Source of the DNA: Bacteroidales bacterium
Lineage (GTDB): Bacteria > Bacteroidota > Bacteroidia > Bacteroidales > JAADJA01
Length of the DNA: 64,000 bases
Assembly: GCA_016933115.1 (NCBI GenBank)
Contig: JAFGBL010000172.1
Span: 76 to 64,075, forward strand
Direction of reading: 5' to 3'
Below the pieces are notes generated by a model that made no database searches, was not told the DNA's origin, and saw only the letters and a program-made list of their open reading frames with translations. Both the position numbers and the translations under genes were made by a program. Of the stretch, positions 18,156 to 63,748 are shown one piece after another. How positions within the stretch are numbered: the first letter of the stretch is position 1; every line of letters begins with the position of its first letter.

Positions 18156-18160
18156 AGTTA

Positions 18161-44692: not shown

Positions 44693-44727
44693 TTTCTTAA
44701 CAAAACCATGCAAAAAGAATAATAAAT

Positions 44728-46026: not shown

Positions 46027-46235
46027 CCTTAACAATTTCACCTGCATGGTAAATTGTAATATCTGAATCTTGAATTTAAGTCAACCAACTTTGCGATTTG
46101 AAATTTCCATTTTTCAATTTGCATTTCAAATCCCTGCTATGTGGAAGCCAAATGTTTATTGAAAACGCTGTCAAAAATTGAAAATGCGCACCATAAGTGT
46201 TCAACGTAATAGTAGAAGACCATTTTAAAAATTCC

Positions 46236-46316
46236 TTCATCCTTTTCACAAAATGCTTTGAATCATCCCACTCACCCAACCTGATCCTGTATCCTTTAAA
46301 ATTCCCGGATTCATTG
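46236..46316 (-). pseudogene. Diverged remnant copy of the hydE 3' end
   Basis: Ungapped 81 bp match to 46585-46665 (57/81 identical by hand count). GYRIRLGEWDDSKHF versus GYKIKLGEWGDSRHF. Confidence 0.75.
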
Positions 46317-46359
46317 TCCTTATGGATTATCAAGGTACAAAATCGTTAATTTTAACATT

Positions 46360-46552
46360 GTGCACCTACGGAGCACCGAAAAGGTATTGATGTATTTTTC
46401 TACCAACATTAAGCCCCTCCGGGGCTACAGGAAATTTGCAGTTTGCACATTATTTTTTGCAATTTGAAATTTTAAAACCAAGGCACCGTAGGTGCCAAAT
46501 ATGGGTAGAAAAATTTGGTGGAAGGAGAAATGGCGCGCCGTAGGTGCGCCAT
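46360..46552. repeat. Inverted pair of REP-like doublets (REPIN/BIME-like)
   Basis: Hairpins GTGCACCTACGGAGCAC, AGCCCCTCCGGGGCT, GGCACCGTAGGTGCC and ATGGCGCGCCGTAGGTGCGCCAT, with inverted linkers TTTTCTACCAACATT / AATATGGGTAGAAAA. Confidence 0.75.
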
Positions 46553-46580
46553 ATCTGAAATGAAAACCAATGCTAATAAA

Positions 46581-47663
46581 TCAATTCACCCGCCTCGCAA
46601 AATGCCTTGAATCCCCCCATTCCCCCAATTTAATCTTATAACCATTCAGCATATCCGATTCATTGATCTTCCGGATCAGATCATCCGCTTCGGTGAGGTA
46701 AGGTTTGTTTTCATAGAGGAAATAGTTCTCCCGGTATTTTAAGGGCGTTAGGTTCGGCATTAATACATTGGCACCGGCACGAATGGCTTGCAGCCGGCCA
46801 TCATCCACAAGGGAATCGAGTGCGGTGGCGGCGGCAATGTTGATGTCGGGCATCAAGATTCGTAAAACTGAAATCGTTAGCAGGGAAAGCTCCAGCCTTT
46901 CTTTTTTTGGCAATAATTGGTCCCTGGATTCAAATAACGGCGTATCCTTATGTTCGATATAGGGCCCCATGCCCACCATGTCGACATTGAGGGTTTTCAG
47001 CATCAGAAGGTCATCGACAAGGTTTCCGATGGTTTGGCCGGGCAGTCCGATCATCATGCCTGAGCCTACCTGATAACCGGTTTCTTTTAAATATTGCAAT
47101 GAATTCAACCGGTTAAGCAGGAAATGTTTTTTGTTGTTGGGATGGATCTTATAATACAACTCCGGATCTGAGGCTTCGAACCGCAACAGGTAACGATGGG
47201 CTCCGCTGTCGAACCACCTCTTATAAGTTTCTTTGGTTTGATCTCCGCAGGAAAGGGTGATCCCGAGTTTGCCTTTCGATAGCATTTTAATCTTTTGAAC
47301 CAGGTTACTGATGATTTCGATAAATTCCTGATCCGTCCGTTCTCCCGACTGTATCACCACTGAACCATAGTTGTTCTCAAAAGCATATTCGGCACAACGA
47401 AGCACTTCCTCTTCCTCGATACAGTAGCGTTCCACGTTTTTATTCCCCGCACGGATACCGCAATAGAAGCAGTTTTTTTCGCAGATATTCGAAAACTCGA
47501 TCAGTCCGCGGAGGTAAATTTCATTCCCGACTAATTCCGCTCTGACTTCCATAGCTTTTTGAAAGATCAAATCCCGCTCATTCTGATTTTGCACCGAAAG
47601 CAACCGGATCAGGTCTTCGCGCGAAAGCGATTCTTTTTCCAATATATGGGTTATGTCAGGCAT
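46581..47663 (-). CDS. hydE: [FeFe]-hydrogenase maturase HydE (radical SAM)
   Basis: RGLIEFSNICEKNCFYC, RYLLRFE, GANVLMPN and YFLYENK motifs; adjacent to hydF and hydG. Confidence 0.95.
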   Translation of the reverse strand: MPDITHILEKESLSREDLIRLLSVQNQNERDLIFQKAMEVRAELVGNEIYLRGLIEFSNICEKNCFYCGIRAGNKNVERYCIEEEEVLRCAEYAFENNYGSVVIQSGERTDQEFIEIISNLVQKIKMLSKGKLGITLSCGDQTKETYKRWFDSGAHRYLLRFEASDPELYYKIHPNNKKHFLLNRLNSLQYLKETGYQVGSGMMIGLPGQTIGNLVDDLLMLKTLNVDMVGMGPYIEHKDTPLFESRDQLLPKKERLELSLLTISVLRILMPDINIAAATALDSLVDDGRLQAIRAGANVLMPNLTPLKYRENYFLYENKPYLTEADDLIRKINESDMLNGYKIKLGEWGDSRHFARRVN

Positions 47664-48867
47664 ACACTTTCCGGAAAGGTTCCGTTACACGATCAAACAT
47701 ACCATTCACCCAGGCAATGGCCATACCGTAGTTGGAGATGGCAATTTCGGCATCTTTGGCAGGTTTCAGGCGGCTCCACAATTGTTTTCTTGTCACCATG
47801 CAGCCACCGCACTGGATCAGAAGTTTGTAGTCTTCCGGGTCACGGGTGATCTTGTCCAGACCGGCCACGATGTCGAAATCTATTTTTTTCCCGGTATATT
47901 CACTGATCCATTTCGGAAGTTTATAACGCCCGATATCGTCGCAGTTCACCTGGTGCGTGCATGATTCGAGGATCAGTACCCGGTCCCCATCCTGCAATTC
48001 CCCGATCTTCGGGGTTCCTTTCAGATAAGCCTCAAAATCGCCCCTGAACCGGGCCAGCATTATGCTGAAGCTCGTAAACGGAACAAAAGCCGGCACAATG
48101 TCTTTCATTTTTCCAAACACCTGGCTGTCGGTAATAGCGAGCTTGGGTTTGATGCCTGAAGTTTTGAAAAAATTCTCCACCTGGTCTTCCTTCAGCACAA
48201 TGTTGATGGCGTCGTTATCGAGCACATCGCGGATGGCCATCACCTGAGGCAGGATCATCCGTCCATCGGGCGCTTCATTGTCGATGGGGGTGATGAGCAG
48301 CACGTAATCGCCTTTTCCGATAAGATCGCCCAGTAATTTTGGTTTTTGAAAAACCGATTCGGGTATGGTGTTTTTTAAAGATGCAATTACCTTTTCCAGG
48401 TTATGTTTTTCTCTGGCGCTGAAATCGGTGAGTTCAGCCTTTGTGATCGTCTCAACACGGATCCGGGTTTTATCTTCCAGCGGTTGTTCGTCTGATTTAT
48501 TATGAACAAGGATATACGGAACTTCAAAATTATCAAAGGTTTTGATCAAATCTTCTTCAAACCCTTCGAACGTATTTTCTGAGATCATCAACACGGCACA
48601 ATCCACGGTTTTGAGAACCTGCAGTGATTTTTCAATCCGCTTTTCCCCGAGTTCCCCCACGTCATCAATTCCGGCAGTATCCACCACGATAGCCGGCCCG
48701 ATCCCGAATATCTCGATGGATTTTTTCACCGGGTCCGTAGTCGTGCCAGCCTGTTCGGAAACAATGGCGATCTCTTGTCCGACCAGCGCATTGATGAATG
48801 AGCTTTTGCCGGTGTTTCGCCTTCCGAATATGCCGATGTGGGGTTTGTTGTCGCGGGTTCTGTTCAT
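47656..48867 (-). CDS. hydF: [FeFe]-hydrogenase maturation GTPase HydF
   Basis: GRRNTGKSS, GTTTDPV, GRMILPQ, ESCTH..DIG and CGGCM motifs. Confidence 0.96.
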   Translation of the reverse strand: MNRTRDNKPHIGIFGRRNTGKSSFINALVGQEIAIVSEQAGTTTDPVKKSIEIFGIGPAIVVDTAGIDDVGELGEKRIEKSLQVLKTVDCAVLMISENTFEGFEEDLIKTFDNFEVPYILVHNKSDEQPLEDKTRIRVETITKAELTDFSAREKHNLEKVIASLKNTIPESVFQKPKLLGDLIGKGDYVLLITPIDNEAPDGRMILPQVMAIRDVLDNDAINIVLKEDQVENFFKTSGIKPKLAITDSQVFGKMKDIVPAFVPFTSFSIMLARFRGDFEAYLKGTPKIGELQDGDRVLILESCTHQVNCDDIGRYKLPKWISEYTGKKIDFDIVAGLDKITRDPEDYKLLIQCGGCMVTRKQLWSRLKPAKDAEIAISNYGMAIAWVNGMFDRVTEPFRKVYA

Positions 48868-48951
48868 TGTAGTTTGATTTAGTAAAAAATGGTCAGCAGT
48901 CCTTTCGGGCCGCCGACCTTGCTACGACAAATTAAATTTAAAAGTGTGTGT

Positions 48952-49029
48952 ATCGTTATTACCCTTACTACTGGGGAAGATTGCTTCGCTCCTGCGCACA
49001 AGCCAACTGTACTGGCTCGCAATGACGAT
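48952..49029. repeat. Partial copy of a palindromic intergenic element
   Basis: AGATTGCTTCG...CTCGCAATGACG matches the right arm of the element at 51736-51814; the left arm is mostly lost. Confidence 0.6.
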
Positions 49030-49053
49030 CGGATATGTGTGTTGTTTTTCATA

Positions 49054-50481
49054 TTAAAAATAAATATCCCGTTCACCCTGTTTGATCTTCTCAATGCGGT
49101 TGAGTAACTCATCCTTCCTTCCAAAACCATTCAGTTTTTCGATGTTTTCATGAACCACCTTCCAGCCTTTGATCCGGGTTTCGACCGGTGCATAATCGAG
49201 CAGGTACTCCACCAGCGTGAGGATGGCATTTGGGGTGCAATATCTTTTGATGAATCCCGGCACTGAAAACTCCATAAAATGCTGGCCTGTTCTGCCTTTC
49301 CGGTAACAGGCCGTGCAAAACGAAGGCAGGTATCCATGATCCAGCAACTCATCTATCACCTCATTCAAACTCCGGTCATCGCGGATCAGAAATTGCTCTT
49401 TGTCGAGATTCTGAGCCTTGTTGAATTCTTCTGCATAAGCGCCCAGTTCGATCTTTGTTCCGGCATCTATTTGCGAACAACCGAATTGCAGCACCTCATC
49501 CCTCACCTCCTTCGGCTCTCTTGCTGTCAGTATCATACCGGTGTAAGGAACGGCCAGCCTTAGAATAGCAATGATCCTGACAAACTCCTCATCCGAAACC
49601 AGGTAATCCTCATCAATGTCAATATCCGAAGCATTTTGCAAACGCGGAAATGAAATGGTATGGGGACCCACATTATAACAGGCTTCCAGATGGTTCACAT
49701 GCCTTACCAACCCCATCACCTCGTATCGCCAGTCGTATAATCCAAATAAAGCCCCGATTCCCACATCATCAATTCCGGCTTCAAAAGCAGTATCGAGCGA
49801 AGTGAGCCGGTATTCATAATCTGCCTTTTTCCCACCCTGATGGTATTTCCGGTATGTATCCGGATGATAGGTTTCCTGAAAAATCTGGTAAGTCCCGATG
49901 CCGGCTTCATGTACTTTTTTAAATCCATCCAGGTCCATGGGGGCCGCATTGATGTTTACCCGCCTGATCTCGCCGTTTCCTTTTTTCACCTGGTAAACCG
50001 TTCGAACCGTTTCAGCAATATAATCAGCCGAATAATTTTTGTGTTCCCCAAAAACCAGGATCAAACGTTTTTGCCCGTTTTCTTCCAGCGCTTCCACATT
50101 TTTCACGATCTCATCATGACTCAAAGTTCTTCGTTCAGCATGGGGATTAGACGCTCTGAACCCGCAGTATTTGCAGTTGTTTGAGCAGAAATTCCCGATA
50201 TAAAGCGGGGCAAACAATACAATTCGGTTTCCGTAAACATTTTCCTTCAGCGTTTTTGCTCCCTCTTTGATCAGTTCAATCAGTTCGGGGTCGGTGGTAT
50301 TTACCAGCACCGCCACATCCTGAAGGCTCAGCCTTTGTTTGCTGAGTGATTTTTCAATGATCTTTCCAACCACTTTACGGTCGGAAACAGCCGTTCCCAG
50401 CATCTTTTCAATTTCATCTGCATCTATGAACGGAATCCCGGGACGGTCTTCTATGTTATATTTTTCTGGTGTGAACTTCAT
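49054..50481 (-). CDS. hydG: [FeFe]-hydrogenase maturase HydG (radical SAM)
   Basis: FAPLYIGNFCSNNCKYC, FQETY, GPHTISFPR and the C-terminal CTACYR...CTPNA cluster. Confidence 0.97.
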   Translation of the reverse strand: MKFTPEKYNIEDRPGIPFIDADEIEKMLGTAVSDRKVVGKIIEKSLSKQRLSLQDVAVLVNTTDPELIELIKEGAKTLKENVYGNRIVLFAPLYIGNFCSNNCKYCGFRASNPHAERRTLSHDEIVKNVEALEENGQKRLILVFGEHKNYSADYIAETVRTVYQVKKGNGEIRRVNINAAPMDLDGFKKVHEAGIGTYQIFQETYHPDTYRKYHQGGKKADYEYRLTSLDTAFEAGIDDVGIGALFGLYDWRYEVMGLVRHVNHLEACYNVGPHTISFPRLQNASDIDIDEDYLVSDEEFVRIIAILRLAVPYTGMILTAREPKEVRDEVLQFGCSQIDAGTKIELGAYAEEFNKAQNLDKEQFLIRDDRSLNEVIDELLDHGYLPSFCTACYRKGRTGQHFMEFSVPGFIKRYCTPNAILTLVEYLLDYAPVETRIKGWKVVHENIEKLNGFGRKDELLNRIEKIKQGERDIYF

Positions 50482-50504
50482 TGTCGTAGTCTTTTGTAGC
50501 TTTT

Positions 50505-51623
50505 TTAGTCCGGAATGGTCACCGTAAACTTTGAACCCACATCGGGCTGACTTTCCACCCTGATCTCCCCATCGTACAATTCCACCAGTTTTTTCACGAT
50601 GGAAAGCCCTAACCCGCTGCCGGTTATATTTTTTGTTTTCATGTTTTTGATCCTCACAAATTCACCGAAAAGTTTGGAAACCTCCTCTTCGGTCATCCCG
50701 ATGCCGGTGTCTGCCACCGTAATCTCCAGTTTGCCGTTTTGTTTTTTCAGCCCCACAATCACTTCTCCGCCATCGCGGTTGTATTTCACAGCGTTGGAAA
50801 GCAGGTTGTTGAAGATAATCTCGATTTCCCCGCGATCGGCATTGATATAAATCTCCTCTTCCTGAACCGGCTGAATTTTAACATTTCTCTGATTTGCCAA
50901 TGGTTCAATTGTGTCTCTGGCAATTCTAAAAACTTCAGTTATATCCACTGGTCTGAAATCGCGGGTTTTAACTCCAGATTCGATCTTCGTAAGGTCGAGC
51001 AAATCAGAGATAAGCGTTCTCATGCCTTTCAGCCTTTCAAGCGACCGTTCGATCATCATTTTGTAATCCCCGATGTTATCACCGACTTGTTTGTCTTTCA
51101 TGATCTGCAGGTATCCTTCGATTGCATTCACCGGGCTTTTTAACTCATGCGACAGCACCGACAGGAACTGGAAGCGCAATTGTTGTCCTTCCTCATTCAT
51201 TTTCCTGGAGATCCTTTTCAGGAAAAGGTGTTTGGTGATGTTTTCCATCGCGCTCTTCAACTCCTGCGGGGTGAAAGGTTTCGGGACAAAGTTAAAAGCC
51301 CCGTTGTTGGTTGCTTTCACTGCCAGATCGAGAGAAGCATAAGAAGTGATCATCATCACCTCGGCATCATAATTTTTTTTGTTGATATATTCCAGCACCT
51401 CGATGCCGTGGATGCCGGGAAGTTTATTGTCCAGCAAAACGATGTCGATCTGTTGGTTGTCGATGGTCTCAATGGCTTTTTCGCCGGTTTCGGCTTCAAT
51501 GATGCTGAAATCGAAATCTTCATCCATGAATGGGTAGCCCACCGTAAAGTTCTGAAGAATGCGGTTTATTCCTGAGCGGATACCTGGCTCATCGTCGACT
51601 ACAAGTACTTTTAGTGTTGCCAT
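50505..51623 (-). CDS. Hybrid receiver-histidine kinase
   Basis: Receiver (VVDDE, LLDNKLP, PKP), HisKA (SHELKSP) and HATPase (NAVKYN, DTGIG, GSGLGL). Confidence 0.93.
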   Translation of the reverse strand: MATLKVLVVDDEPGIRSGINRILQNFTVGYPFMDEDFDFSIIEAETGEKAIETIDNQQIDIVLLDNKLPGIHGIEVLEYINKKNYDAEVMMITSYASLDLAVKATNNGAFNFVPKPFTPQELKSAMENITKHLFLKRISRKMNEEGQQLRFQFLSVLSHELKSPVNAIEGYLQIMKDKQVGDNIGDYKMMIERSLERLKGMRTLISDLLDLTKIESGVKTRDFRPVDITEVFRIARDTIEPLANQRNVKIQPVQEEEIYINADRGEIEIIFNNLLSNAVKYNRDGGEVIVGLKKQNGKLEITVADTGIGMTEEEVSKLFGEFVRIKNMKTKNITGSGLGLSIVKKLVELYDGEIRVESQPDVGSKFTVTIPD

Positions 51624-51647
51624 TTCAATCGATTTTTGTTTTAAAAA

Positions 51648-51688
51648 GACATGCAGGTATTCAAATCCACAGGTCGAACCTGCATGTC
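51648..51688. repeat. REP-like hairpin
   Basis: GACATGCAGGT / ACCTGCATGTC, an 11 bp perfect inverted repeat. Confidence 0.6.
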
Positions 51689-51735
51689 GTACTAACCAAG
51701 TTACTAATCCATATATTGTGAAAATTTGAAACCGA

Positions 51736-51814
51736 CGTTATTGCGAGGAGGCACGACGAAGCAATCTGTCGGATATTACCACAAGCAGATTGCTTTCCTG
51801 CGCTCGCAATAACG
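51736..51814. repeat. Palindromic intergenic element
   Basis: Outer IR CGTTATTGCGAG/CTCGCAATAACG and inner IR AAGCAATCTG/CAGATTGCTT. Confidence 0.75.
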
Positions 51815-51850
51815 GTGACCAATACTTCTGAGGAGTTCATCATTATTTTA

Positions 51851-52252
51851 CTAAATCTTCAACAATTTATTGATCTCCCTTTGCAACTGATCCGGCCGGA
51901 TGCCTTTTTCGAGGTACTGATCGGCTTTGATCCAATTTCGCTCTTCTTCGGTGTCGAGACCGAAGATCATCCCTGTTTCGGCAGTCACGGCTGTGGCAAT
52001 GATCACCGGTACATCGGGATATTTCTTTTTTATTTTGAAACTGAGGATAAATCCGCTGTCCTGGTTTTCCATCATCAGATCGAAAATGGCCAGGTTGGGC
52101 TTTTCGGTCTCCAGTAACTTTTCTCCTTCTTTCTGGCTTTCGGCTGTGATCGTATCAAATCCGAATCGCTCCACCTGCATCTTCATCTGCGTGAGGCTGT
52201 CGATATCATCGTCAACGATCATGATCTTTTTTCTTGCTTCCATTGCTATCAA
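51851..52252 (-). CDS. Single-domain response regulator
   Basis: IVDDD, FDLMM, AT and EK motifs; no output domain. Confidence 0.9.
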   Translation of the reverse strand: MIAMEARKKIMIVDDDIDSLTQMKMQVERFGFDTITAESQKEGEKLLETEKPNLAIFDLMMENQDSGFILSFKIKKKYPDVPVIIATAVTAETGMIFGLDTEEERNWIKADQYLEKGIRPDQLQREINKLLKI

Positions 52253-52254
52253 AT

Positions 52255-54243
52255 TTATAGTTCCCGTTTTCGCGGTATTGTAATTTTAAATGTTGTTCCT
52301 GTTGCCCCTTTTTCGGGATCAGCATTGGATTGTACCGTCACCTGGCCTTTGTGCATCTTCACAATGCCATAGATCAGCGGAAGGCCCAGGCCGGTTCCTT
52401 TACCCATTTCTTTTGTTGTAAAAAACGGAGTAAACAATTTATCCATATTTTCTTCGGGAATCCCGATACCTGTATCACTCACATCAATTTCAACTGTACT
52501 TCCGTTTCCTGAAAGAGCTACTGTCAATACTCCTCCGGCAGGCATGGCTTCCACGGCATTTTTTTCAAGATTGGTCAAAACCTGCATCATCTGGTCCTGA
52601 TCGAGCTCCAGCAACGGGTTGCTGAGTTCTGAAATAAATTCGATCTTCACACTTTCGGATTTGATCACCGTTTCCAGGCTATGCTTTACAAAAGATTCGA
52701 TGTTGGTTTCCTGCAGTCTCACCTGGTTTTTCCGGGCAAAGTTAAGGAGTCCGCCAACGATGCCCTTGCAGCGGTCGGCCTGTTCAACGATCAGTTGGAG
52801 GTCTTTACGGATCGGACTGTCTTCCGGTGCTTCATCTTTCAGGATGTTGGAATACATGGTGATCACTCCCAGCGGATTATTAAGTTCGTGCGCTATCCCT
52901 GCCGAAAGTTGTCCCATGCTCGCCAGCTTCTCCGATTGTTTAAGTGCCAATTGCGTAGTTGCCAGCTTATCATTCGATTCATTCAGTTCCTCGATGGATT
53001 TATGGAGTTTTTCGATGGTAAAAGGCAGGCACATTTCCGTTTCGGCCAATCCTTCCACAATGGCAATGGCATGATCCACACAGGTTTCATACCCGCAGGC
53101 ACCGCAATTCAGATGATCTTTAAGGGTATATTTTCCCATCTTAAGCAGTGCTTCTTCAATTTTCTTTTCATCGGGCAATGGAATGCGACGGTCGGCTGGT
53201 TTAAAATGCTGGCTCAGATCTACATCACCGAAGGTTTCCACCTGTTGTTGCCACTGCTCATTGTCCAGCCTGTTAAGCTTTTCACGAACATAATTGCTGA
53301 TTTGCGTGCGACGGGTGTACCGTTTTCCACCTTTCGACATACCCGGACCCATGATACACCCCTCGCAGCAAAGCAGTTCCAGGTGATGCGACTGCAACAA
53401 ACCGCTCTCAAACTCCTTTACGGCATCCCTGAAATTAACCCTTCCTTCCGCCACTACAATATTTCCTTCAGCAATATCGTCCGATCGGTTCACCGTTTGC
53501 AACATTCCCCGGCAAACCGGGAAAATAGCGCCTTTCCCGGCAAACGGCGGATCGAATTCCGATTCTTCGGCCTCTTCGGCAACAATACCTTCCGAAGCCA
53601 GCAGGTATCTTAATTCGGTAAATGTTATAGCGGCATCCACTTCGTCCGATTCTGCTTTTTTTGCAATACACGGCCCTATGAAAACCACTTTCAGGTTTTC
53701 GCCGTGTTTCTTCCGCAAAATCCTTGTAATGGCAACCATCGGTGAGGCAACAGGTGCCAGGTAAGGCACCAGCCCCGGATGATATTGCCGGATGTAATAC
53801 ACAATAGCAGGGCAATCGGAGGAGATATGGGGCTTCTCTCCATTCAAATCCATCAGCTTCTCATACTCACGCGCCACCATATCCGCTCCAAAAGCCACTT
53901 CATTCACCAAATCAAACCCTAATGAGCGAATCATGCCCACCAGTTTCTTAAAGTTCTTTATATCCGAAAATTCGGCTGCAAAACTCGGTGCCAGCAAGGC
54001 TGCTACCTTATGCTCCGAAGCCACCAAAGCCTTCACTTCCGGATTTGAGTTGTAATATACTTTCGCACCCTGACTGCATACTTTCACGCAGTTTCCACAT
54101 CCGATACACCGTTCGATCATCACCTCAGCCTGTCCGTTCATGATGCGGATCGCCTTCACCGGGCACTCTCTGACGCAGGTATAGCAAACCTTACACAGAT
54201 CTTTCTGCGTGTAAACGAGGTTGGTATGTGGGGTGTTGGACAT
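52255..54243 (-). CDS. Sensory [FeFe]-hydrogenase-like domain fused to a histidine kinase (group C1-like)
   Basis: Two N-terminal ferredoxin motifs; APSF; H-cluster-like motifs SSDCP, GPCIAKKAE and ELLCCEGCIMGPG; Cx2Cx4Cx16C FeS motif; HisKA (AHELNNP); HATPase (TTKEMGKGTGLGL). Confidence 0.88.
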   Translation of the reverse strand: MSNTPHTNLVYTQKDLCKVCYTCVRECPVKAIRIMNGQAEVMIERCIGCGNCVKVCSQGAKVYYNSNPEVKALVASEHKVAALLAPSFAAEFSDIKNFKKLVGMIRSLGFDLVNEVAFGADMVAREYEKLMDLNGEKPHISSDCPAIVYYIRQYHPGLVPYLAPVASPMVAITRILRKKHGENLKVVFIGPCIAKKAESDEVDAAITFTELRYLLASEGIVAEEAEESEFDPPFAGKGAIFPVCRGMLQTVNRSDDIAEGNIVVAEGRVNFRDAVKEFESGLLQSHHLELLCCEGCIMGPGMSKGGKRYTRRTQISNYVREKLNRLDNEQWQQQVETFGDVDLSQHFKPADRRIPLPDEKKIEEALLKMGKYTLKDHLNCGACGYETCVDHAIAIVEGLAETEMCLPFTIEKLHKSIEELNESNDKLATTQLALKQSEKLASMGQLSAGIAHELNNPLGVITMYSNILKDEAPEDSPIRKDLQLIVEQADRCKGIVGGLLNFARKNQVRLQETNIESFVKHSLETVIKSESVKIEFISELSNPLLELDQDQMMQVLTNLEKNAVEAMPAGGVLTVALSGNGSTVEIDVSDTGIGIPEENMDKLFTPFFTTKEMGKGTGLGLPLIYGIVKMHKGQVTVQSNADPEKGATGTTFKITIPRKREL

Positions 54244-54252
54244 TGTTTTTTT

Positions 54253-54456
54253 GCTCTTAGTTTTTGGCTTTTAGCTATTGGCCTTTATAAGACCACTAAC
54301 CTATGCCCATTTTTATATTTTTTTCAGTATTTATCTTTGATCTAATTTTGTCCCTATTTGCTTAGTGCTTAGTGCTTAGTGCTTAGTGCTTAGTGCTTAC
54401 TGCTTAGTGCTTAGTGCTTACTGCTCCACGCTCCCTGCTCCCAGCTCCACGCACCA
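54253..54456. repeat. Heptamer tandem arrays between hydA and the sensory kinase
   Basis: (TGCTTAS)x9 at 54359-54421, continued in register by five GCTCC-like heptamers to 54456. Five GCTTTTA-like heptamers lie at 54253-54287. Confidence 0.9.
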
Positions 54457-56175: not shown

Positions 56176-56192
56176 TTTCGTACTTTCAAATG

Positions 56193-58145
56193 TTAAGCAA
56201 CCACACTGATCGCATCAAATTTACAGGCTTCTTCGCAGGAACCGCAACCGATGCATTTATCTTCCACGATGAAATGCGGTGCTTTTTTGGTTCCGATGAT
56301 GGCTCCGGTAGGGCATTTTCTTGCACATACCGTGCAACCTGTACATTTATCCACATTTATCCTGAAAGTCCTCAATTCAGTGCAAACTCCCGGCTGACAT
56401 TTCCTTTCGTAGATATGCGATTCGTATTCATCGCGGAACCACTTGATCGTGCTGAGCACCGGGTTTGGAGCTGTTTGTCCGAGTCCGCAAAGCGAAGTTT
56501 CTTTGATCACCTTTCCGAGTTTTTCAAGTTGTATGATCCCTTTGAACCGTTGCAGCGCTTCTTTTTCGCTGTTTCCGTTGGGTTTATGGGTGATGCTTTC
56601 CAAAATCTCAAGCATCCTTCTTGTACCTTCACGACAGGGAATACATTTCCCGCAGCTTTCGCGCTGGATGAAATCCATGAAAAATTTGGCTACATCCACC
56701 ATGCAGGTGTCTTCATCCATCACCACCAGGCCACCGGAACCCATCATGGCTCCAACACTGATCAGTGATTCATAATCAATCTGGATGTCGAGGTTTTGTT
56801 CGGTGATACAGCCGCCCGAAGGACCGCCGATCTGCACCGATTTGAATTTTTTGTTGTTGGGAATTCCACCGGCAATATCAAAAATGATCTCGCGCACCGT
56901 CGTTCCCATCGGGATTTCCACAAGACCCGTCAGGTTGATTTTCCCGGAAAGGGCAAAAACCTTGGTTCCTTTGCTTTTTTCAGTCCCGATTGAAGCAAAC
57001 CATTCTTCTCCACGAGCCAATATTTCCGGCACATTCGACAGGGTTTCCACATTGTTGATGATGGTCGGTTTGCCGAACAATCCGCTGATGGCAGGAAACG
57101 GTGGCCTCGGTCTCGGCATTCCGCGCATTCCTTCGATACTGTGGATCAAAGCCGTTTCTTCACCACAAACAAATGCTCCGGCTCCCATCTTGATAATGAT
57201 GTCGAAACTAAAACCGCTATCGAAAATGTTTTTCCCAAGCAAACCATAATCTCTGGCCAGGTTCAGGGCAATTTTTAACCGTTCGATGGCCAACGGATAT
57301 TCGGCACGGATGTAAACATAGCCTTTGGTAGCGCCGATTCCGTAGGCAGAGATCGCCATGCCTTCGATGAGTCTGTGCGGATCGCCTTCGATCACAGCCC
57401 GATCCATGAATGCTCCCGGATCTCCCTCATCGGCATTGCAAATCAGGTATTTTTGATCGGCTTCGGCGCCATTGGCAAACTTCCATTTTTTCCCGGTTGG
57501 GAACCCTCCGCCGCCACGGCCGCGTAATCCGCTCTTTTCAATCTTGTCGCATACTTCAATGGAAGTATAGGTTTTCAGTGTATCCAGGAAACTTTTGTAG
57601 CCGCCCCTAGCAATGTATTCATTAATATCGATGGGGTCAACAATTCCGCAGTTTTTCAGAACGATCCGCTTTTGCGGTGCAAAAAACGGGTGTTCATCAA
57701 TAAAAGGTACATTCTCCCAGGCTTCCAGTTTTTCGGAACGGAATTGTCCCAGTATGTTCGGATTGGTTGAATCAAGTGAGAAAACGCTCTCAAGGACTTC
57801 ATTCACCTTATCGCCGGTTACATTTTTAAAAGAGATACGGTTTTTCCCCGGAAGCCGCACATCGAGCAGAGGTTCAGCAGCACAAAAACCGATACAGCCC
57901 ACCTTGATCACTTCTACATCCAGCTCATGATCTTCGATGAACCGCTGCGTTTCGAGCCAGGTCTTTTCAGCCCCGGCGCCCAGTCCGCAGGTTCCGGTTC
58001 CGATGAAGATCACCGGTTTGCTGACAATATCACGCCTCAGGTCTGACAATTCCCCGATCACGAACGGATCCACTTCATGAGCCGGGCCGTTCAGCACCTT
58101 TTCGATCAGGAATTCCTTCATATTCATTGTTCTTGCCGTTTCCAT
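56193..58145 (-). CDS. hydB: Diaphorase (NuoF-like) subunit of the trimeric [FeFe]-hydrogenase
   Basis: N-terminal thioredoxin-like Cys domain, GLRGRGGGGFP, NADEGDPGAFMD, CGEETAL, ESCGKCIPCREG and C-terminal 2x4Fe-4S. Confidence 0.95.
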   Translation of the reverse strand: METARTMNMKEFLIEKVLNGPAHEVDPFVIGELSDLRRDIVSKPVIFIGTGTCGLGAGAEKTWLETQRFIEDHELDVEVIKVGCIGFCAAEPLLDVRLPGKNRISFKNVTGDKVNEVLESVFSLDSTNPNILGQFRSEKLEAWENVPFIDEHPFFAPQKRIVLKNCGIVDPIDINEYIARGGYKSFLDTLKTYTSIEVCDKIEKSGLRGRGGGGFPTGKKWKFANGAEADQKYLICNADEGDPGAFMDRAVIEGDPHRLIEGMAISAYGIGATKGYVYIRAEYPLAIERLKIALNLARDYGLLGKNIFDSGFSFDIIIKMGAGAFVCGEETALIHSIEGMRGMPRPRPPFPAISGLFGKPTIINNVETLSNVPEILARGEEWFASIGTEKSKGTKVFALSGKINLTGLVEIPMGTTVREIIFDIAGGIPNNKKFKSVQIGGPSGGCITEQNLDIQIDYESLISVGAMMGSGGLVVMDEDTCMVDVAKFFMDFIQRESCGKCIPCREGTRRMLEILESITHKPNGNSEKEALQRFKGIIQLEKLGKVIKETSLCGLGQTAPNPVLSTIKWFRDEYESHIYERKCQPGVCTELRTFRINVDKCTGCTVCARKCPTGAIIGTKKAPHFIVEDKCIGCGSCEEACKFDAISVVA

Positions 58146-58609
58146 TACACTTCCTTGTTTTTCAGATTTTCGATGATCTCAACCAGCGACTGTTCGGTGA
58201 CCTTTGCATGAAAATTCCCATTGATGTTGATAACGGGAGCCAATCCGCAGGCCCCGATACAAGCCACCACTTCGATGCTGAACATACCGTCGCGGGTCGT
58301 TTGACCTGCCTTTGCTTTGAGTAATTTTTCGAGTTTATCCAGTACGGTTGCCGATCCAAGCACATGACATGCTGTTCCGCGGCACACCTGGATGTGGTAT
58401 TTACCTTTGGGTTCGAACCTGAACTGGTTGTAAAAGGTCGCAACGCCATAGATCTTGCTGGTTGGGATACCCAGCCTCCTACCCACTTCAGCAATCGCAC
58501 GCTGAGAGAGAAACCCTTCATTTTCCTGTATTTCCTGAAGAATGGGTATCAGGCTGTCGCGTTTTGCGTCTCCTCTTGCTTCCAGTATTTCCGCTATCCC
58601 TTTTTTCAT
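58145..58609 (-). CDS. hydC: 2Fe-2S (NuoE-like) subunit of the trimeric [FeFe]-hydrogenase
   Basis: GVATFY, CRGTAC and CIGAC motifs; TAATG overlap with hydB. Confidence 0.95.
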   Translation of the reverse strand: MKKGIAEILEARGDAKRDSLIPILQEIQENEGFLSQRAIAEVGRRLGIPTSKIYGVATFYNQFRFEPKGKYHIQVCRGTACHVLGSATVLDKLEKLLKAKAGQTTRDGMFSIEVVACIGACGLAPVININGNFHAKVTEQSLVEIIENLKNKEV

Positions 58610-58650
58610 TTTTAATGGTTTTTTGTCTTTAACCCCGGGGTTCCGATCCC

Positions 58651-59169
58651 TTAATTTGAGTGGAAACTTACCTTTTTGCCAAGCAGTTCTTTGATCTCGG
58701 GTAAAAGTTTTTTCGAGTCAACGGGCTTTTTCAGGAATCCATCCACCGGCAGCCAGATGGTTTTGCCATCGTCGTTGCGATAATCAATGCCTGCTTTTCC
58801 GCTTACGATATCCTTCATGAGGATCACCTGCAATTCCTTGTATTTGGGATCCTGACGGAATTCACGTGCCATTTCCCTTACACTTTCCTTGGTGGTGGTG
58901 AAAACTTCGATGGAGGTTTGCATCAGAATAGGCATGTTTCTAAAAGCCTGTTCGTTCACCAGCGCTTCAGCCAGTTCGAAACCTTCGTAATGGGTTGTCA
59001 TCATCACGTCGAGGATGGCCAGGTCGGGATGGATTTCACGGGCCAGTTGCAGGCCTTCATCCTTATTGTTTGCCGAAAATACCTCGTAACCTTCATTCTC
59101 AAGAATGGTGCTGATTACATTGATGATATCGATGTCGTCGTCTACGATTAAAATTTTTTGTGTGTTCAT
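58651..59169 (-). CDS. Single-domain response regulator with an internal insertion
   Basis: IVDDD, LDVMM, QT and KKP motifs, with an unusually long segment between QT and KKP. Confidence 0.88.
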   Translation of the reverse strand: MNTQKILIVDDDIDIINVISTILENEGYEVFSANNKDEGLQLAREIHPDLAILDVMMTTHYEGFELAEALVNEQAFRNMPILMQTSIEVFTTTKESVREMAREFRQDPKYKELQVILMKDIVSGKAGIDYRNDDGKTIWLPVDGFLKKPVDSKKLLPEIKELLGKKVSFHSN

Positions 59170-59194
59170 GATACTGTTTTTTCAGGGTTCATAT

Positions 59195-59632
59195 TTAATT
59201 AACTAATGAATGATTATCGAATCTGAGATTCACTGTTTGCAGGCCGGGCGACAGGTAAAACCTTTCTTCCTTGCTGTTCACGATCTCATGCAACAGGTCA
59301 TAATTATCGTTTGATTTTGCGAGATAACCGCTCACACCGGCTGTGATCATTTTATTGATATAACGCTGGTTTTCGAGTGAAGAAAAAGCGATAAACCGGA
59401 TGTTTGGAAATTTCCGGTGGCCGATCAGTGTAGCTTCAAAGCCGCCCATTCCAGTCATAGCCACATCCAGGAAAACGATGTCGGCTTTTTCATTTTCAAG
59501 CAGTTCGAGCAGTTGCAGACCATTTTCCACCTCTCCAATAATTTTAACATTCCCGATGTTGAGAAGAATTCTTTTCAATCCTTCGCGGAAATATTTATTA
59601 TTGTCGGCGATTATGATCTTCTGTTTTTTCAC
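59195..59632 (-). CDS. NarL-type receiver-only protein (no HTH)
   Basis: Similar to the N-terminal half of 59996..60631; FLDVAM retained; GTG start; ends before any HTH. Confidence 0.8.
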   Translation of the reverse strand: MKKQKIIIADNNKYFREGLKRILLNIGNVKIIGEVENGLQLLELLENEKADIVFLDVAMTGMGGFEATLIGHRKFPNIRFIAFSSLENQRYINKMITAGVSGYLAKSNDNYDLLHEIVNSKEERFYLSPGLQTVNLRFDNHSLVN

Positions 59633-59648
59633 TTTATCAATTTTGATC

Positions 59649-59718
59649 CAAAAGTAGCATCTGACCCCCCCCTACACAAGAGCGAAAGACGCAAAGGGAA
59701 AACAGGTGAAAATACCTG
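59649..59718 (-). promoter_or_regulatory. Putative promoter of the hydrogenase operon with an upstream palindrome
   Basis: Minus-strand -7 box TACTTTTG (59649-59656); CTTG 20 bp upstream; palindrome CAGGT-N6-ACCTG at 59703-59718. Confidence 0.5.
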
Positions 59719-59995
59719 AGATGAAATTCCAATTTTCGTTGTTTCAATTAGTTATATGTGATAATTTGTTAATTGTAAAGCTTTGAATGGGTATTGATAA
59801 AATTCCAAAATCCAATAAAAGGGTTGTTGTTATTCAAATAACAGCAAGGGTGAAATTTTGTATTTTATTTGAAAAAAATGAAAATAAATTTTTAGCAGGT
59901 GTTTTACACGGGTGGATGGTTTTGGAGTTTTACGAAGTAATCGGAAAAACCTATTATCCCCGGTCTGTGGCGAACGCGAACCTAACTGGTCAATT

Positions 59996-60631
59996 TTAGT
60001 TCACCAACCCATTCTTTATCGCAAACATCACCAAATTGGGTGCATTTTTAGCGCCGGTCTTTTCAAACAAGCGGGCACGAAAGCCATCCACAGTGCGGCT
60101 GCTGACGCCGAGAAAATTGGCAATCTCAACATTGGAGTAGCCTTTGCAGATCAACTCCAACACTTCCTGTTCGCGGTCGGTAAGGTTAATTGATGTGTCC
60201 TTGTGTTTGGGCTTGAGGTACATATTGACAGAACTCATGAACTCTTCGGAAAAATAACTTTCATCTTCGAGCACAAGGTTTATGGCACGCTCAAGTTCTT
60301 CTGAAGTAGTTTTTTTAAGGAGAAATCCAGATGCGCCCGCTTCGATCATTTTATTGAAATAACTGATCTCCTCGAACATGGTAAGGGCAATGACCTTGAT
60401 TCCGGGATATTTGGCCGACACTTTTTTGGTAGCTTCGATGCCGTCCATCACGGGCATTTTGATGTCCATCAAAATTACATCGGCGGGTTGTTTTTTGAGA
60501 AGTTCGAGCAATTCATTGCCATTGGAGGCTTCCCCAACAACTTTTACAAAATCGATCTCATTAAGAATCGTATACAATCCTTTCCTGAAAATAACGTGGT
60601 CGTCGACGATGATTATTTTAGCTATTTCCAT
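59996..60631 (-). CDS. NarL/FixJ (LuxR-HTH) response regulator
   Basis: VDDH, MDIKMP and LTDREQEVLELICKGYSNVEIA motifs. Confidence 0.95.
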   Translation of the reverse strand: MEIAKIIIVDDHVIFRKGLYTILNEIDFVKVVGEASNGNELLELLKKQPADVILMDIKMPVMDGIEATKKVSAKYPGIKVIALTMFEEISYFNKMIEAGASGFLLKKTTSEELERAINLVLEDESYFSEEFMSSVNMYLKPKHKDTSINLTDREQEVLELICKGYSNVEIANFLGVSSRTVDGFRARLFEKTGAKNAPNLVMFAIKNGLVN

Positions 60632-62744
60632 TGTTTAGTTGTTTTGGTTTCAGTTTTAAAGATGCGATCAAAAACATCCCTTCGCCCGGTTTGGTGTTGA
60701 TGTCCACCGTTCCCTTCACCGATTTGATCTTGTTTACTATATTATTCAATCCCAATCCCGAATTTTGCTTCATCGCTTCTTCCAAGTCAAAACCGATACC
60801 GTCATCGCGGTAATACAAAATTATTTGATTTTCATAACTTTTCAGTTCAATCTTGATGTTTTTGGCCGATGCATGCCGAATCGTATTGTTGATCAACTCC
60901 TTTACTGACTGATAGAGCACAGTCTCCTCAATACCCCGCTGCTCAATGGTATACTGATAAGTAAACACCTCAATGTTGATCGACTCCGTTTTTTTTATAA
61001 AGTTGCAAAAATCATTGACTGCAGCGGCCAATCCGAAATCCTGCAGAATATTGGGCCGGATGTTGCGTGAGATCGTCCGGGTAGAAGTAATTGCCATATC
61101 AACCAGTTCTTCAATGTTTCGCACAGCTTCTTCTTCATCGATCTTTTTGAAATTTTTCTTTTTCAGAAGATCGGTGTACAATTTAACGGTTGAAAGAATT
61201 GGTGCAAGATCATCGTGGAGATCAGCCGCAAAACGCTTTCTTTCGTTTTCCTCGGTTTGAATAATGGTAGTCAGGATGCGGTCTTCCACTTCCTTGCGCT
61301 CGGAAATATCACGGGCAATAGTAAGAATCATTTTTTCACCTTTGTAGTCAAACACACGGCTTTTCATTTCAACCGGAATGGTTAAACCACTTTTGGATAT
61401 GATCTCAGATTCATACTGATGTTGGCCAAATTTTCGGATCCTATTGATGTAAGTATCTACCTTTTGTTTTAACAGCTCAGGTTTGATTTGCCTGATATTC
61501 ATCTTCATAAATTCCTCACGCGAATATCCAAGGTCATCACAAGCGACCTGGTTCACTTCGATAAAGTTGCCTTCAAAATCGATCACAAAAATATCATCGG
61601 AACTATTGTTGAACAGGGTCTGAAAATGGCGTTCGGATTGTTCGAGTGCCTGCTGCGTTTGTTTAAGCTTTTTGGAGGAACGTTCAAGTTGCGATAGGAA
61701 TTTCCTTACATTCTCAGCCGTAATAAAATATACAAAAACCGATAAGGCAAGAATAATAAAACCTGCAATTATCAGTGAATTATAGATCACCTCGCGAACA
61801 AGTGAACCCGTTTCGTCTTTCAGGGGAACTGCGGCAGCAATGTAGACCTTGAAATCGGGATAATAATCCCATGCAGCGATTTTTTTAATCCTGTCGCGTT
61901 TCAAAGTATAAGTCGCTACTCCTGAAGGTTTTGAAAGAATGGTTTCGATGATCGCCTCATCAGTCCACAATTCGCCGGTAGCGTAGGGATGCACTATGAA
62001 ACGCCCGGTTTCATCCAACACAAATGGGAATCCTTTTTTTCCGATTTTCAGGGAAATGATTTTCTGATGTAACTCTTCAATATCTTTTTCCCTGTCACCT
62101 ACATATAACATTCCAATAATTTCATTTCCTCTATAAATGGGTTCATATGCTGTAATATACCAACTATCAACCACAAAGGCCCTTCCAATGTAGGTTTGAC
62201 CTTTTTCCACAGTTTTTACAACGGGTGAATCATTGGGGATAAAAGTGCCAACCGCACGATTGCCATCAGTTTTCATCACGTTGGTCGAAATCCTCATGTA
62301 TCCGATGTCGATCTTCTGGAAAATAGTAGCCGTACCTCCCACCAGTTTGTGAATATCATCGACGAAATTATAATTTTGGTATAGAGATTTCCCATTGTAT
62401 TTCCATACTTTTACCGTTGCGCTGTGGGTTGAACCCGTGACCTGGTTCAGGACGGGAATCCTTACTGTTTCATTTCCAATGGTGAGTTCTCCGTTATAAA
62501 ACAACCGGTGGGCGACTTTCAGGTCTGATTTCACCTTGGCCAGTTTCAGGTCGCGCTCCCGCTCAAACATCTTTTTCAGAGTTTGGACTTCCAGGGTCAA
62601 ATGCCTTTCAAGTGAGTCATTGATATTTTTTTTCAGGTTATTGACAGAAAAAAGTGTTACCGCACTTATTGCTACAACAATTCCAGTTATAATTGGAAGA
62701 TATAAACGAAACTTTGGTGACAACCATTTTTTCTCTTTAAACAT
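60618..62744 (-). CDS. Membrane sensor histidine kinase (Cache-type periplasmic domain, PAS, HisKA_3)
   Basis: Two TM helices flank GGTATIFQ..RISTNV..RAVGT..GRAFVV..YITAYEP (Cache_3/Cache_2-like). PAS domain, EENERKRFAADLHD, DDGIGF and GLGL follow. Confidence 0.92.
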   Translation of the reverse strand: MFKEKKWLSPKFRLYLPIITGIVVAISAVTLFSVNNLKKNINDSLERHLTLEVQTLKKMFERERDLKLAKVKSDLKVAHRLFYNGELTIGNETVRIPVLNQVTGSTHSATVKVWKYNGKSLYQNYNFVDDIHKLVGGTATIFQKIDIGYMRISTNVMKTDGNRAVGTFIPNDSPVVKTVEKGQTYIGRAFVVDSWYITAYEPIYRGNEIIGMLYVGDREKDIEELHQKIISLKIGKKGFPFVLDETGRFIVHPYATGELWTDEAIIETILSKPSGVATYTLKRDRIKKIAAWDYYPDFKVYIAAAVPLKDETGSLVREVIYNSLIIAGFIILALSVFVYFITAENVRKFLSQLERSSKKLKQTQQALEQSERHFQTLFNNSSDDIFVIDFEGNFIEVNQVACDDLGYSREEFMKMNIRQIKPELLKQKVDTYINRIRKFGQHQYESEIISKSGLTIPVEMKSRVFDYKGEKMILTIARDISERKEVEDRILTTIIQTEENERKRFAADLHDDLAPILSTVKLYTDLLKKKNFKKIDEEEAVRNIEELVDMAITSTRTISRNIRPNILQDFGLAAAVNDFCNFIKKTESINIEVFTYQYTIEQRGIEETVLYQSVKELINNTIRHASAKNIKIELKSYENQIILYYRDDGIGFDLEEAMKQNSGLGLNNIVNKIKSVKGTVDINTKPGEGMFLIASLKLKPKQLNNGNS

Positions 62745-63167
62745 TCTACCTGGTATATTTTCAACAAAACTAAAGGAAATTAGAAAGAAATAATAAATAT
62801 CGGTAGTAAATTAGACCCTTAATGCACAGTAAACAATTATTACGGCACTTTAAAATGGCCTGCATTTAAATGATTGTAACCATAGAATCAATAACTCCAA
62901 TTATTCCCTCGCTAAAAAAGAAAGCCCAGGCCATTTAGTCATCCACAAACGGGGCTCCCTAATGCCCTGAATTTTTATTCAGGACCAGGTATCCGACACA
63001 TGGAGCCGGTTATTTACAACTGAAAAAAATTCAGACTGTGGGTTATGTTGGATAAGGTTGTTGCATCAATGAACACAAAACCATTTAAAATTTCCGGGAA
63101 TTGTCTTACCAGAGGGCTTCATTCAAATCACGGGACAACTGGTCATTACTTCTGTGCCGACCGTCAG

Positions 63168-63210
63168 TAAAACAATGGCCGAACAGAAAAAATTTTTCCG
63201 TCCGGCCATT
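63168..63210 (-). terminator. Intrinsic terminator downstream of 63237..63704
   Basis: Minus-strand stem AATGGCCGGACGGAAAA/TTTTCTGTTCGGCCATT (with G-U pairs) followed by GTTTT. Confidence 0.6.
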
Positions 63211-63236
63211 TATAATTATATTTTCCTTTTCGGAGA

Positions 63237-63704: not shown

Positions 63705-63748
63705 TTGTAAGAATTTAAAGTTATTGATGATTTATTATTTGGTTTCAT

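Follow-up and report, generated by a model that had tools for sequence, protein, structure and literature searches.

The closest described counterparts of the system reported here are putative sensory [FeFe]-hydrogenases. HydDB catalogues one group of this kind, C1, which is predicted from genomes and labelled 'histidine kinase-linked (putative)' (Sondergaard et al. 2016, PMC5037454). In Bacteroidales, the Petrimonas mucosa protein ING2E5A_0849 has received a C1 call and adjoins a Hnd-type bifurcating hydrogenase (PMC7768429), and group C genes are also reported beside A3 operons in other phyla. Two putative sensory enzymes are presented as characterised, TmHydS from Thermotoga maritima (group C/M2f) and TamHydS from Thermoanaerobacter mathranii (group D/M2e) (PMC8163306, PMC10407848). 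Neither of these two examples comes with an easily measured output. Here we analyse a kinase-linked member in a 64,000-nucleotide (nt) stretch of the genome of an uncultured Bacteroidales bacterium (contig JAFGBL010000172.1; the whole stretch is hereafter called the window), in which 13 contiguous minus-strand open reading frames (ORFs) fill positions 46581-62744. A preliminary description, made from the letters alone, had listed these genes with their coordinates, strand and domains, had counted three kinases, five receiver domains and one DNA-binding domain among them, and had described the kinase-linked class as one predicted from genomes; the ORF listing, Pfam and HydDB agree with it on these points. 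It had also named no resolved signalling pathway for a kinase-linked [FeFe] sensor, and we likewise found no biochemical or genetic resolution of one in the open literature.

The locus shares with HydDB group C1 and its Petrimonas representative an H-cluster protein tied to a histidine kinase, a neighbouring multimeric hydrogenase of group A3 type and a proposed role in H2 sensing. Nothing essential differs between them, and the present locus is the common Bacteroidales form. We propose, with moderate confidence, that the row is a fermentative H2-metabolism unit with two separable signalling modules. One would be a conserved core, in which a hydrogenase-like sensor kinase and its receiver partners accompany a bifurcating-type hydrogenase, and the other an accessory pair of a Cache-domain kinase and a NarL-type regulator, which would act at the promoter of the hydrogenase genes.

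A protein-guided scan with one genome per species returned at least 565 relatives, of which the best 80 loci were kept; these are the nearest relatives of a single protein and hence a biased sample. The closest public records are metagenome-assembled genomes (MAGs) labelled Bacteroidales or Bacteroidetes. The 13 window proteins were mapped onto the loci by tblastn with an E cut-off of 1e-10 and a query coverage of 50% or more, and each count includes only those loci that are long enough to show the gene in question. Nearly all of the 80 loci share the core order, an arrangement far beyond chance. HydC was found in 68 of 71 assessable loci, HydB in 69 of 71, HydA in 73 of 75, the 133-amino-acid (aa) receiver following the sensor (REC133) in 77 of 78 and the receiver-kinase hybrid (RECHK) in all 71. 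The conserved unit is hydC-hydB-hydA together with the sensor kinase, a receiver and a receiver-kinase. The maturases stand downstream of the relay in a smaller share of loci (HydG 40/67, HydF 30/62, HydE 25/58), and a 172-aa receiver (REC172) is present in 38 of 69. The remaining signalling genes recur less often: a 145-aa receiver (REC145) in 19 of 65 loci, the NarL-type regulator in 23 of 59, with 8 of these only 43-49% identical, and the Cache kinase in 14 of 55, 3 of them 40-45% identical. Synteny of the signalling genes with hydABC, whose absence the preliminary description had named as refuting its model, holds for the core; for the Cache kinase, the NarL-type regulator and REC145 it was seen in a minority of loci only. 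In a whole-genome search, a full-length sensor orthologue was found in 10 of 24 genomes of the same genus, many of these MAGs being incomplete, and one more genome carries it in pieces with stop codons. Across other families of the order, 4 of 16 genomes contain an orthologue (55-61% identity), and MAG incompleteness leaves absence from the others unproven. Internal stops in the sensor gene occur in 2 of the 80 related loci (L030 and L071) and in a same-genus genome (G013:C33:221855-223834), through either decay or assembly error.

The sensor kinase (662 aa; 54243-52255) comprises two [4Fe-4S] motifs, a Fe_hyd_lg_C domain (7e-46), a PF04060 iron-sulfur domain, HisKA (1e-13) and HATPase_c (5e-25). 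In an alignment of the window protein with 80 orthologues of 62-87% identity (81 sequences), the H-cluster residues Cys144, Cys192, Cys293 and Cys296, as well as Lys195, are invariant. The eight N-terminal cluster cysteines are kept in 80 or 81 of the sequences, and Cys380, Cys383, Cys388 and Cys405, which match PF04060, are invariant with the exact Cx2Cx4Cx16C spacing. For the M2e and M2f sensory hydrogenases, a pair of [4Fe-4S] motifs is described at the N terminus and a Cx2Cx4Cx16C motif at the C terminus (PMC8163306). On the kinase side, all 81 sequences keep the phospho-accepting His452 along with the N and G2 boxes for ATP binding, and 80 keep the G1-box Asp590.

The surroundings of the H-cluster depart from those of a prototypical enzyme. 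With CpI numbering taken from the papers and carried over through one pairwise alignment with the window HydA, which makes the equivalences putative, the position of the proton-relay Cys299 is occupied by Asp143, that of Met353 by Gly190 and that of Met497 by Leu291, each in 81 of 81 sequences. Glu126 (69/81) stands at the 279 position, Ser167 (81/81) at the 319 position, and the Lys358 equivalent is retained in the kinase-fused sensor. The losses of Cys299, Met353 and Met497 fit the statements on sensory groups C and D in PMC8163306 and PMC10407848. Since groups C and D are said to carry mostly Ala at position 299 (PMC10407848), the invariant and protonatable Asp143 appears to be a lineage trait. 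An AlphaFold2 (AF2) model of the sensor has a predicted local distance difference test score (pLDDT) of 79.4, with the H-domain blocks mostly at 84-96. In this model, a helix spanning residues 406-423 starts one residue past Cys405 and heads toward the dimerisation and histidine phosphotransfer (DHp) helices; because the last cluster sits at the start of this signalling helix, it could set the autophosphorylation of His452. By its sequence features, the sensor is a non-prototypical [FeFe]-hydrogenase of group C1 type fused to a histidine kinase; the C1 label comes from its domain makeup and from the description of a Bacteroidales protein that has received this call in print.

The partners of the sensor are equally constant. 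REC133 (52252-51851) begins 2 nt past the sensor stop codon, and its Asp14, Asp15, Asp58 and Lys116 are kept in 78 of 78 sequences; it is the likely first phospho-acceptor. RECHK (372 aa; 51623-50505) consists of a receiver, HisKA and HATPase_c with no sensor domain, and keeps Asp65, the receiver Lys, His159 and its ATP-binding motifs in 73 of 73. The HisKA kinase of the sensor and RECHK are related to each other (E 1e-25), and neither is related to the HisKA_3 kinase at the upstream end of the row. No DNA-binding domain was found within the conserved core in any of the 80 loci. The two partner genes are separated by a structured 227-nt spacer (51624-51850, minus strand) with two strong hairpins, the second of which is followed by UUUUU. 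Its minimum free energy is -66.7 kcal/mol (z -4.15), and 0 of 200 shuffles were as stable. This spacer, which is only partly conserved in close relatives, may be an attenuator or terminator and would then separate expression of the receiver-kinase and hydGFE from that of the genes before them.

The enzyme encoded beside the sensor has the makeup of a bifurcating hydrogenase. HydC (58609-58145) is a NuoE-like, thioredoxin-like [2Fe-2S] subunit (Pfam 3e-51, NCBIfam), HydB (58145-56193) is a NuoF-like FMN/NADH subunit with Nuo51 FMN, NADH_4Fe-4S and two Fer4 domains, and HydA (56175-54457) is the catalytic subunit, with Fe_hyd_lg_C (1e-92) and small-subunit domains. The three genes adjoin and HydA is of M3 type, as in trimeric hydrogenases. 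HydA scores 803 bits against the NCBIfam model NF040763, 'NADH-dependent [FeFe] hydrogenase, group A6' (cut-off 765), carries the canonical TSCCP, MPCxxK and CPGGC motifs, and aligns end to end (residues 5-568, 2e-170) with 8a6t_A, the HydA1 chain of a solved electron-bifurcating hydrogenase. HydB matches the solved HydB chains 7q4v_B (8e-220), 8a6t_B (1e-202) and 7p5h_B (4e-184), one of these complexes being deposited as electron-bifurcating; the alignments start at residues 48-77 and finish at 646-649. According to a figure legend in PMC11406978, loss of the extra N- and C-terminal iron-sulfur domains of HydB abolishes bifurcation. In the window protein, the eight cysteines of the C-terminal 2x[4Fe-4S] domain (residues 594-647) are invariant in 36 orthologues, and Cys53, Cys84 and Cys88 of the N-terminal region are invariant as well. 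On these sequence grounds hydCBA encodes a trimeric NADH- and ferredoxin-linked [FeFe]-hydrogenase of bifurcating type. The preliminary description had reached the same view from the GAFMD and SGG strings; these putative markers are indeed present in HydB, both within the general FMN/NADH domain, and the full-length matches to solved bifurcating enzymes, together with the above-cut-off score to the A6 model, now carry the assignment.

In the assembly examined (4.47 Mb, 314 contigs, 88% complete), hydG (50481-49054), hydF (48867-47656) and hydE (47663-46581), all identified by Pfam, are the only H-cluster maturase genes found by tblastn. As the operon holds the only maturase genes found, every [FeFe]-hydrogenase in the cell would depend on how it is regulated. 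By tblastn, three other HydC/HydB-like sets are present, on contigs C155 (~5888-10344), C78 (~81-3958) and C65 (~742-18498), none with a sensor or maturases; HydA is represented by a full-length homologue on C155, a partial one at the contig end on C78 and an N-terminal HydA-like stretch only on C65. Within the row, the 213-nt gap between hydA and the sensor gene contains a heptanucleotide tandem repeat (54359-54425; 9.6 copies of TGCTTAG on the plus strand, 95% matches). Across relatives this gap measures at most 30 nt in 42 of 76 loci. The two genes overlap or abut in many relatives, and the copy number of the repeat could vary and change their coupling.

The two genes at the upstream end of the row form a module of a different kind. 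The Cache-PAS kinase (708 aa; 62744-60618) has a periplasmic Cache_3-Cache_2 domain (4e-67) between two hydrophobic stretches, followed by PAS (PAS_9), HisKA_3 and HATPase_c, and its His510 is kept in 16 of 16 sequences. The NarL/LuxR-type regulator (211 aa; 60631-59996), whose gene overlaps that of the kinase by 14 nt, combines a receiver with a GerE/LuxR helix-turn-helix (HTH) domain; its acidic pocket, phospho-Asp56, Thr84 and Lys106 are kept in 24 of 24. Loci that carry REC172 upstream of hydC are hereafter called type I, and an orthologue of the regulator with at least 68% identity occurs in 24 of the 39 other type I genomes searched. In four genomes the kinase-regulator pair is detached from the hydrogenase row, a few kb upstream on the same contig in two and on other contigs in the other two. 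The NarL orthologues of these genomes are 70-86% identical to that of the window, and each is still preceded by a Cache-kinase orthologue (4/4). Some relatives have an adjoining PAS-HisKA_3 kinase of ~440 aa with no Cache domain, and others have unrelated upstream genes (ABC-F, DEAD helicase, TonB receptor). In 23 of 23 loci, 319 nt or more lie between the NarL-type gene and the one that follows it, whereas most operon junctions are short (medians 1-51 nt). This gap measures 364 nt in the window and contains promoter-like elements, and the row, which the preliminary description had read as one operon, is probably not one transcript. From this arrangement we take the Cache kinase and the NarL-type regulator to be a cognate pair with its own transcription unit, accessory to the core.

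REC145 (59632-59195), the first gene after the promoter-like gap, belongs to the same module. Its receiver is 45% identical to that of the NarL-type regulator (E 9e-24), and its active site is degenerate: the second acidic (Mg-binding) residue is Asn in 18 of 23 sequences, and among the same 23 the phospho-acceptor position holds Asp (17), Glu (3) or Asn (3), the window copy having Asp56 and Asn11. Given this degeneracy, a role as relay or phosphate sink, as the preliminary description had proposed for the stand-alone receivers, is doubtful for REC145, which is probably a pseudo-receiver that modulates the NarL module. A frame-shifted NarL-type gene was ruled out as its origin, since the next gene begins just 25 nt further on and no orthologue falls outside the range of 91-151 aa.

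REC172 (59169-58651) is the receiver for which an insertion had been described. Its Pfam match breaks off at profile position 90 of 111, and the insertion is real: ~50 residues (about 88-140) lie between beta4 and beta5 and rank with the most conserved segments of REC172, with motifs such as MAREFR, and Asp10, Asp11, Asp54 and Lys148 are kept in 41 of 41 sequences. In an AF2 model (pLDDT 84.7), a normal receiver core carries an extra helix and three strands ahead of beta5, which places the insertion on the predicted alpha4-beta5 signalling face. A fold search of the PDB with REC172 returned only ordinary receivers of ~120 residues (template-modelling score ~0.6 for the query, ~0.85 for the targets), with no counterpart to the insertion. 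Metagenomes contain more than 1000 close homologues, each under a generic name. The gene ends 41 nt before hydC; a complex prediction of REC172 with HydB and HydC gave a score of 0.02 (mark 0.32), which bears on neither side.

Two neighbourhood types were seen among the relatives, and they never occur together: type I, in 38 loci, and type II, which has a divergent second hydrogenase-like sensor, in 26. A SpoIIE/PP2C phosphatase stands beside the divergent sensor in 26 of 26 type II loci, and rex lies directly behind the receiver-kinase in 19 of 23 type II loci, in 8 of 9 loci of neither type and in 0 of 37 loci of the window type. At the 299 position the PP2C-linked sensor carries Asn (23/25), and it lacks a Lys358 equivalent, whereas the kinase-fused sensor in the same loci keeps Asp and Lys. 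Type II loci, for example L044 (L044:166-5718 and L044:13715-14356), contain an extra HydA-HydC pair, the divergent PP2C-linked sensor and rex as the last gene. A conserved TTCACATTGCTAAATATTTCACAA-type box lies ahead of hydC in type II loci, and the presumed catalytic HydA of this type has Cys299 replaced in 6 of 26 loci (Asp in 4, Asn in 2).

Two conserved palindromes upstream of the operon, in the gap between the NarL-type gene and REC145, are new in this analysis. In an alignment of 13 upstream regions, four blocks are conserved, all on the minus strand: a distal, weaker copy of CAGGT-N6-ACCTG (CCGTGTAAAACACCTG, 59896-59911), a Rex-like box TGTTA-N6-TAACA (TGTTATTTGAATAACA, 59828-59843), a perfect CAGGT-N6-ACCTG palindrome (CAGGTATTTTCACCTG, 59703-59718) and a -7-like element TAnnTTTG (TACTTTTG, 59649-59656), 24 nt before the REC145 start codon. 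TAnnTTTG, which we take to be the Bacteroidetes-type -7 promoter consensus, is aligned in 13 of 13 sequences, 17-33 nt before the start codon of the first receiver.

The perfect palindrome is a candidate operator of the NarL-type regulator. Its start lies 62 nt upstream of the -7 box in the window, and 62-63 nt upstream of the -7 start in 14 of 14 loci with a strict match; exact sites number 8 in the 4.47 Mb of the assembly. A proximal site (at most 2 mismatches, -80 to -120) was found in 19 of 37 upstream regions, namely in 18 of 23 from genomes with a NarL orthologue of at least 68% identity versus 1 of 14 from genomes with none. Loci with more distant NarL-like regulators show a different palindrome in the same architecture (CCAGTA-N6-TACTGG type). 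No CAGGT-N6-ACCTG site was found within 1.5-kb flanks of the detached NarL genes in the four genomes that have them. We consider it plausible, from its form, that the 16-bp palindrome is a GerE-family dimer site. A mere terminator of the NarL-type gene was considered and ruled out, given the 5-bp stem, the conserved half-sites with variable spacers, the fixed distance to the -7 box and the occurrence of the site where the upstream gene is an unrelated helicase.

The second palindrome resembles a Rex box. The exact TGTTA-N6-TAACA sequence occurs at 20 sites in the genome, 5 of which lie at rex or hydrogenase-like operons: two just upstream of rex (C65), one 33 nt before a HydC-like gene (C65), one before a HydC-like gene (C78) and one here. 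Among related upstream regions it is present in 11 of 37, against 8 of 5000 random 400-nt windows of the genome. When up to 3 mismatches were allowed, a search for the canonical Rex consensus TTGTGAANNNNTTCACAA gave 7 matches in the window versus 7.7 expected, and none in the promoter gap; the Rex-like box came to light through its conservation. The recurrence of the same box before the C78 set, the C65 set and rex suggests a small Rex regulon.

These genes, domains, conserved residues, recurrent neighbourhoods and DNA motifs are what we observe, and from them we infer the response to H2, every phosphotransfer step and both pairings of a protein with a DNA site in the following scheme. H2 at the H-cluster of the sensor would alter the redox state of its clusters, and the last of these, Cx2Cx4Cx16C at the signalling helix, would set the autophosphorylation of His452. 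The phosphoryl group could then pass to REC133, to the receiver of RECHK, or to both, after which the kinase or phosphatase activity of RECHK itself would shape the signal; REC172 is a likely further phospho-acceptor. The sensor module has no DNA-binding domain of its own. Separately, the NarL-type regulator would bind the candidate CAGGT-N6-ACCTG site and activate the promoter, which would drive the two receivers, hydCBA and the downstream genes, with the HTH-less REC145 probably modulating the Cache/NarL pair. The Rex-like box suggests added control by the NADH/NAD+ ratio through an unlinked Rex. It is possible that the Cache signal and H2 are integrated at this promoter.

Several observations weigh against this scheme. 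The sensor module is conserved with no output domain, and for L032 and similar loci no NarL orthologue was found anywhere in the genome (best match 49% identity), which excludes the NarL-type regulator as an output common to all loci with the H2 sensor. Asp143, together with the kept Glu126 and Ser167, could mean that the sensor turns H2 over rather than purely sensing it. The association of the palindrome with NarL is confounded by phylogeny, the orthologue-bearing loci forming one clade; the proximal site is missing in 5 of 23 of these loci and present in one locus with no orthologue, and the palindrome and the T's that follow it also scored as a weak terminator-like hairpin. The Rex-like box departs from 5 of the 14 positions that the published Rex consensus specifies (PMC6391272), and for a repressor site it lies unusually far, ~170 nt, upstream of the -7 box.

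A different input is conceivable for the same sensor. Its 12 invariant accessory-cluster cysteines would also suit a protein that reads the redox poise of the cell or of HydABC through three accessory [4Fe-4S] clusters and reports electron pressure, possibly docked as an extra HydABC subunit. The sensor gene comes next after hydA, and in many relatives the two overlap (median gap 25.5 nt), group C3 proteins are treated as a 'T subunit' of some bifurcating complexes, and H-cluster motifs are described as hard to find in some C1 proteins (PMC11406978). The invariance of the H-cluster cysteines, Lys195 and the pocket residues in 81 sequences is, however, hard to explain if the di-iron site is dispensable, and the only hydGFE genes found in the genome lie in the same row; we regard redox-poise sensing as possible, if rather unlikely. 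The output, too, can be read in another way, in which H2 production would be tuned directly, by binding of phosphorylated REC133 and REC172 to HydABC, to the maturases or to some other enzyme. This would account for a core of two kinases and two receiver domains (with REC172 added in type I) that contains no DNA-binding domain in 80 loci, and for the constancy of that core while the neighbouring DNA-binding partners vary (NarL type, Rex or none). The conserved subdomain on the predicted alpha4-beta5 face of REC172, which has no match among solved receivers, and the proximity of its gene to hydC point the same way. Single-domain receivers act as shuttles or sinks in many systems, however, and could do so here, and a DNA-binding regulator could be unlinked, so that we judge post-translational action to be unlikely.

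The preliminary description had a single cross-wired phosphorelay made of all three kinases and all five receivers, in which a periplasmic Cache signal is merged with H2 and the NarL-type regulator is the only final output. This model survives in part, in that the core is linked to hydCBA. All genes do lie in one row between two terminator-like sites, and a HisKA_3 kinase paired with a NarL-type regulator, with or without a Cache domain, recurs beside type I clusters (23/59). The receiver of RECHK is most similar to that of the NarL-type regulator (29% identity, E 5e-14), and HisKA kinases feed NarL-family regulators in other systems, such as FixL-FixJ. Against this, the NarL-type gene is missing nearby in 36 of 59 loci, all those of the Rex-linked type among them, the kinases are of different DHp families, and the Cache kinase, the NarL-type regulator and the degenerate REC145 form a HisKA_3-type module of their own, with the pair in a separate transcription unit; a single relay is accordingly improbable, and markedly so. 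A further variant, to which we also give little credence, makes the core an H2-adaptation circuit with no transcriptional output of its own, whose phosphorylated single-domain receivers, in this lineage including REC172 with its unique conserved subdomain, would act directly on HydABC, on H-cluster maturation or on resident regulators (NarL type, Rex). Transcription would be under the separate control of the Cache/NarL and Rex inputs, at a single promoter that bears both operators. If true, this would provide fast feedback of H2 partial pressure on the bifurcating hydrogenase. Our preferred explanation remains that of two separable modules, one of which would report H2 through the sensor kinase and the other act at the promoter through the NarL-type regulator.

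Other features of the region are less informative. Strong terminator-like hairpins flank the whole row (63210-63174 and 46496-46482), and intergenic gaps of 213, 227 and 186 nt lie within it in addition to the promoter gap. No copies of the three long intergenic spacers were found elsewhere in the genome, so these spacers are not repeat elements. An Rfam scan of 44000-64000 with E up to 0.1 gave no match. A sigma-70-type promoter scan returned 38 sites versus 29 expected, the sigma-70 model being uninformative for a Bacteroidota genome. In metatranscriptomes (two runs from the same study) and a probable source DNA run, one RNA-library contig of 139 nt matches exactly, within hydG (49860-49998), and the remaining RNA pieces are 35-53 nt matches of 90-95% from other organisms. 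Just past hydE, two neighbouring plus-strand ORFs (422 and 432 aa; 43424-46026) have no Pfam match at E up to 0.001.

Anaerobic Bacteroidales from sediments, digesters and guts very often carry a member of this family, and in these habitats fermentation and syntrophy with methanogens are under the control of the H2 partial pressure. A kinase fusion offers a simple read-out, namely autophosphorylation and phosphotransfer with or without H2, and is a good experimental handle. The analysis narrows the focus to one kinase and three receiver domains, with Cache/NarL as a separate input, and to two concrete DNA sites.

Set against the characterised sensory enzymes, the sensor has the same architecture as TmHydS and TamHydS, with two N-terminal [4Fe-4S] motifs, an H-domain, the Cx2Cx4Cx16C motif and a gene beside a trimeric group A hydrogenase. 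The Cys299 relay is lost in all of them, and the replacement of Met353 by Gly is shared with TmHydS and that of Met497 by Leu with TamHydS, as far as the published descriptions extend. The output differs, being a fused HisKA/HATPase here, a PAS domain in TmHydS and no fused output domain in TamHydS, and so does position 299, where the present family has an invariant Asp and groups C and D usually have Ala, with Glu (279), Ser (319) and Lys358 kept here. The [NiFe] H2-sensing system follows the same logic, in that a low-activity hydrogenase reports H2 to a histidine kinase controlling hydrogenase genes; its metal site is unrelated, however, its sensor and kinase are separate where they are fused here, and its DNA-binding regulator is known. 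Rex, the NADH/NAD+-sensing repressor, is reported to control hydrogenase and hydG genes in anaerobic Firmicutes (PMC6391272). The arrangement here is similar in having a palindromic box upstream of the hydrogenase operon and of rex, and in related Bacteroidales loci rex is the last operon gene; it differs in that the candidate box reads TGTTA-N6-TAACA rather than the published consensus and lies far upstream of the -7 box. Taken as a whole, the locus is a real and well-conserved member of a catalogued class that is also known in Bacteroidales, and not a new kind of system. To that class it adds, as judged from its sequence, conserved receiver and receiver-kinase partners, two neighbourhood types, an invariant Asp at the position of the proton-relay cysteine, an accessory NarL module with a putative pseudo-receiver, an insertion-bearing receiver and candidate operators.

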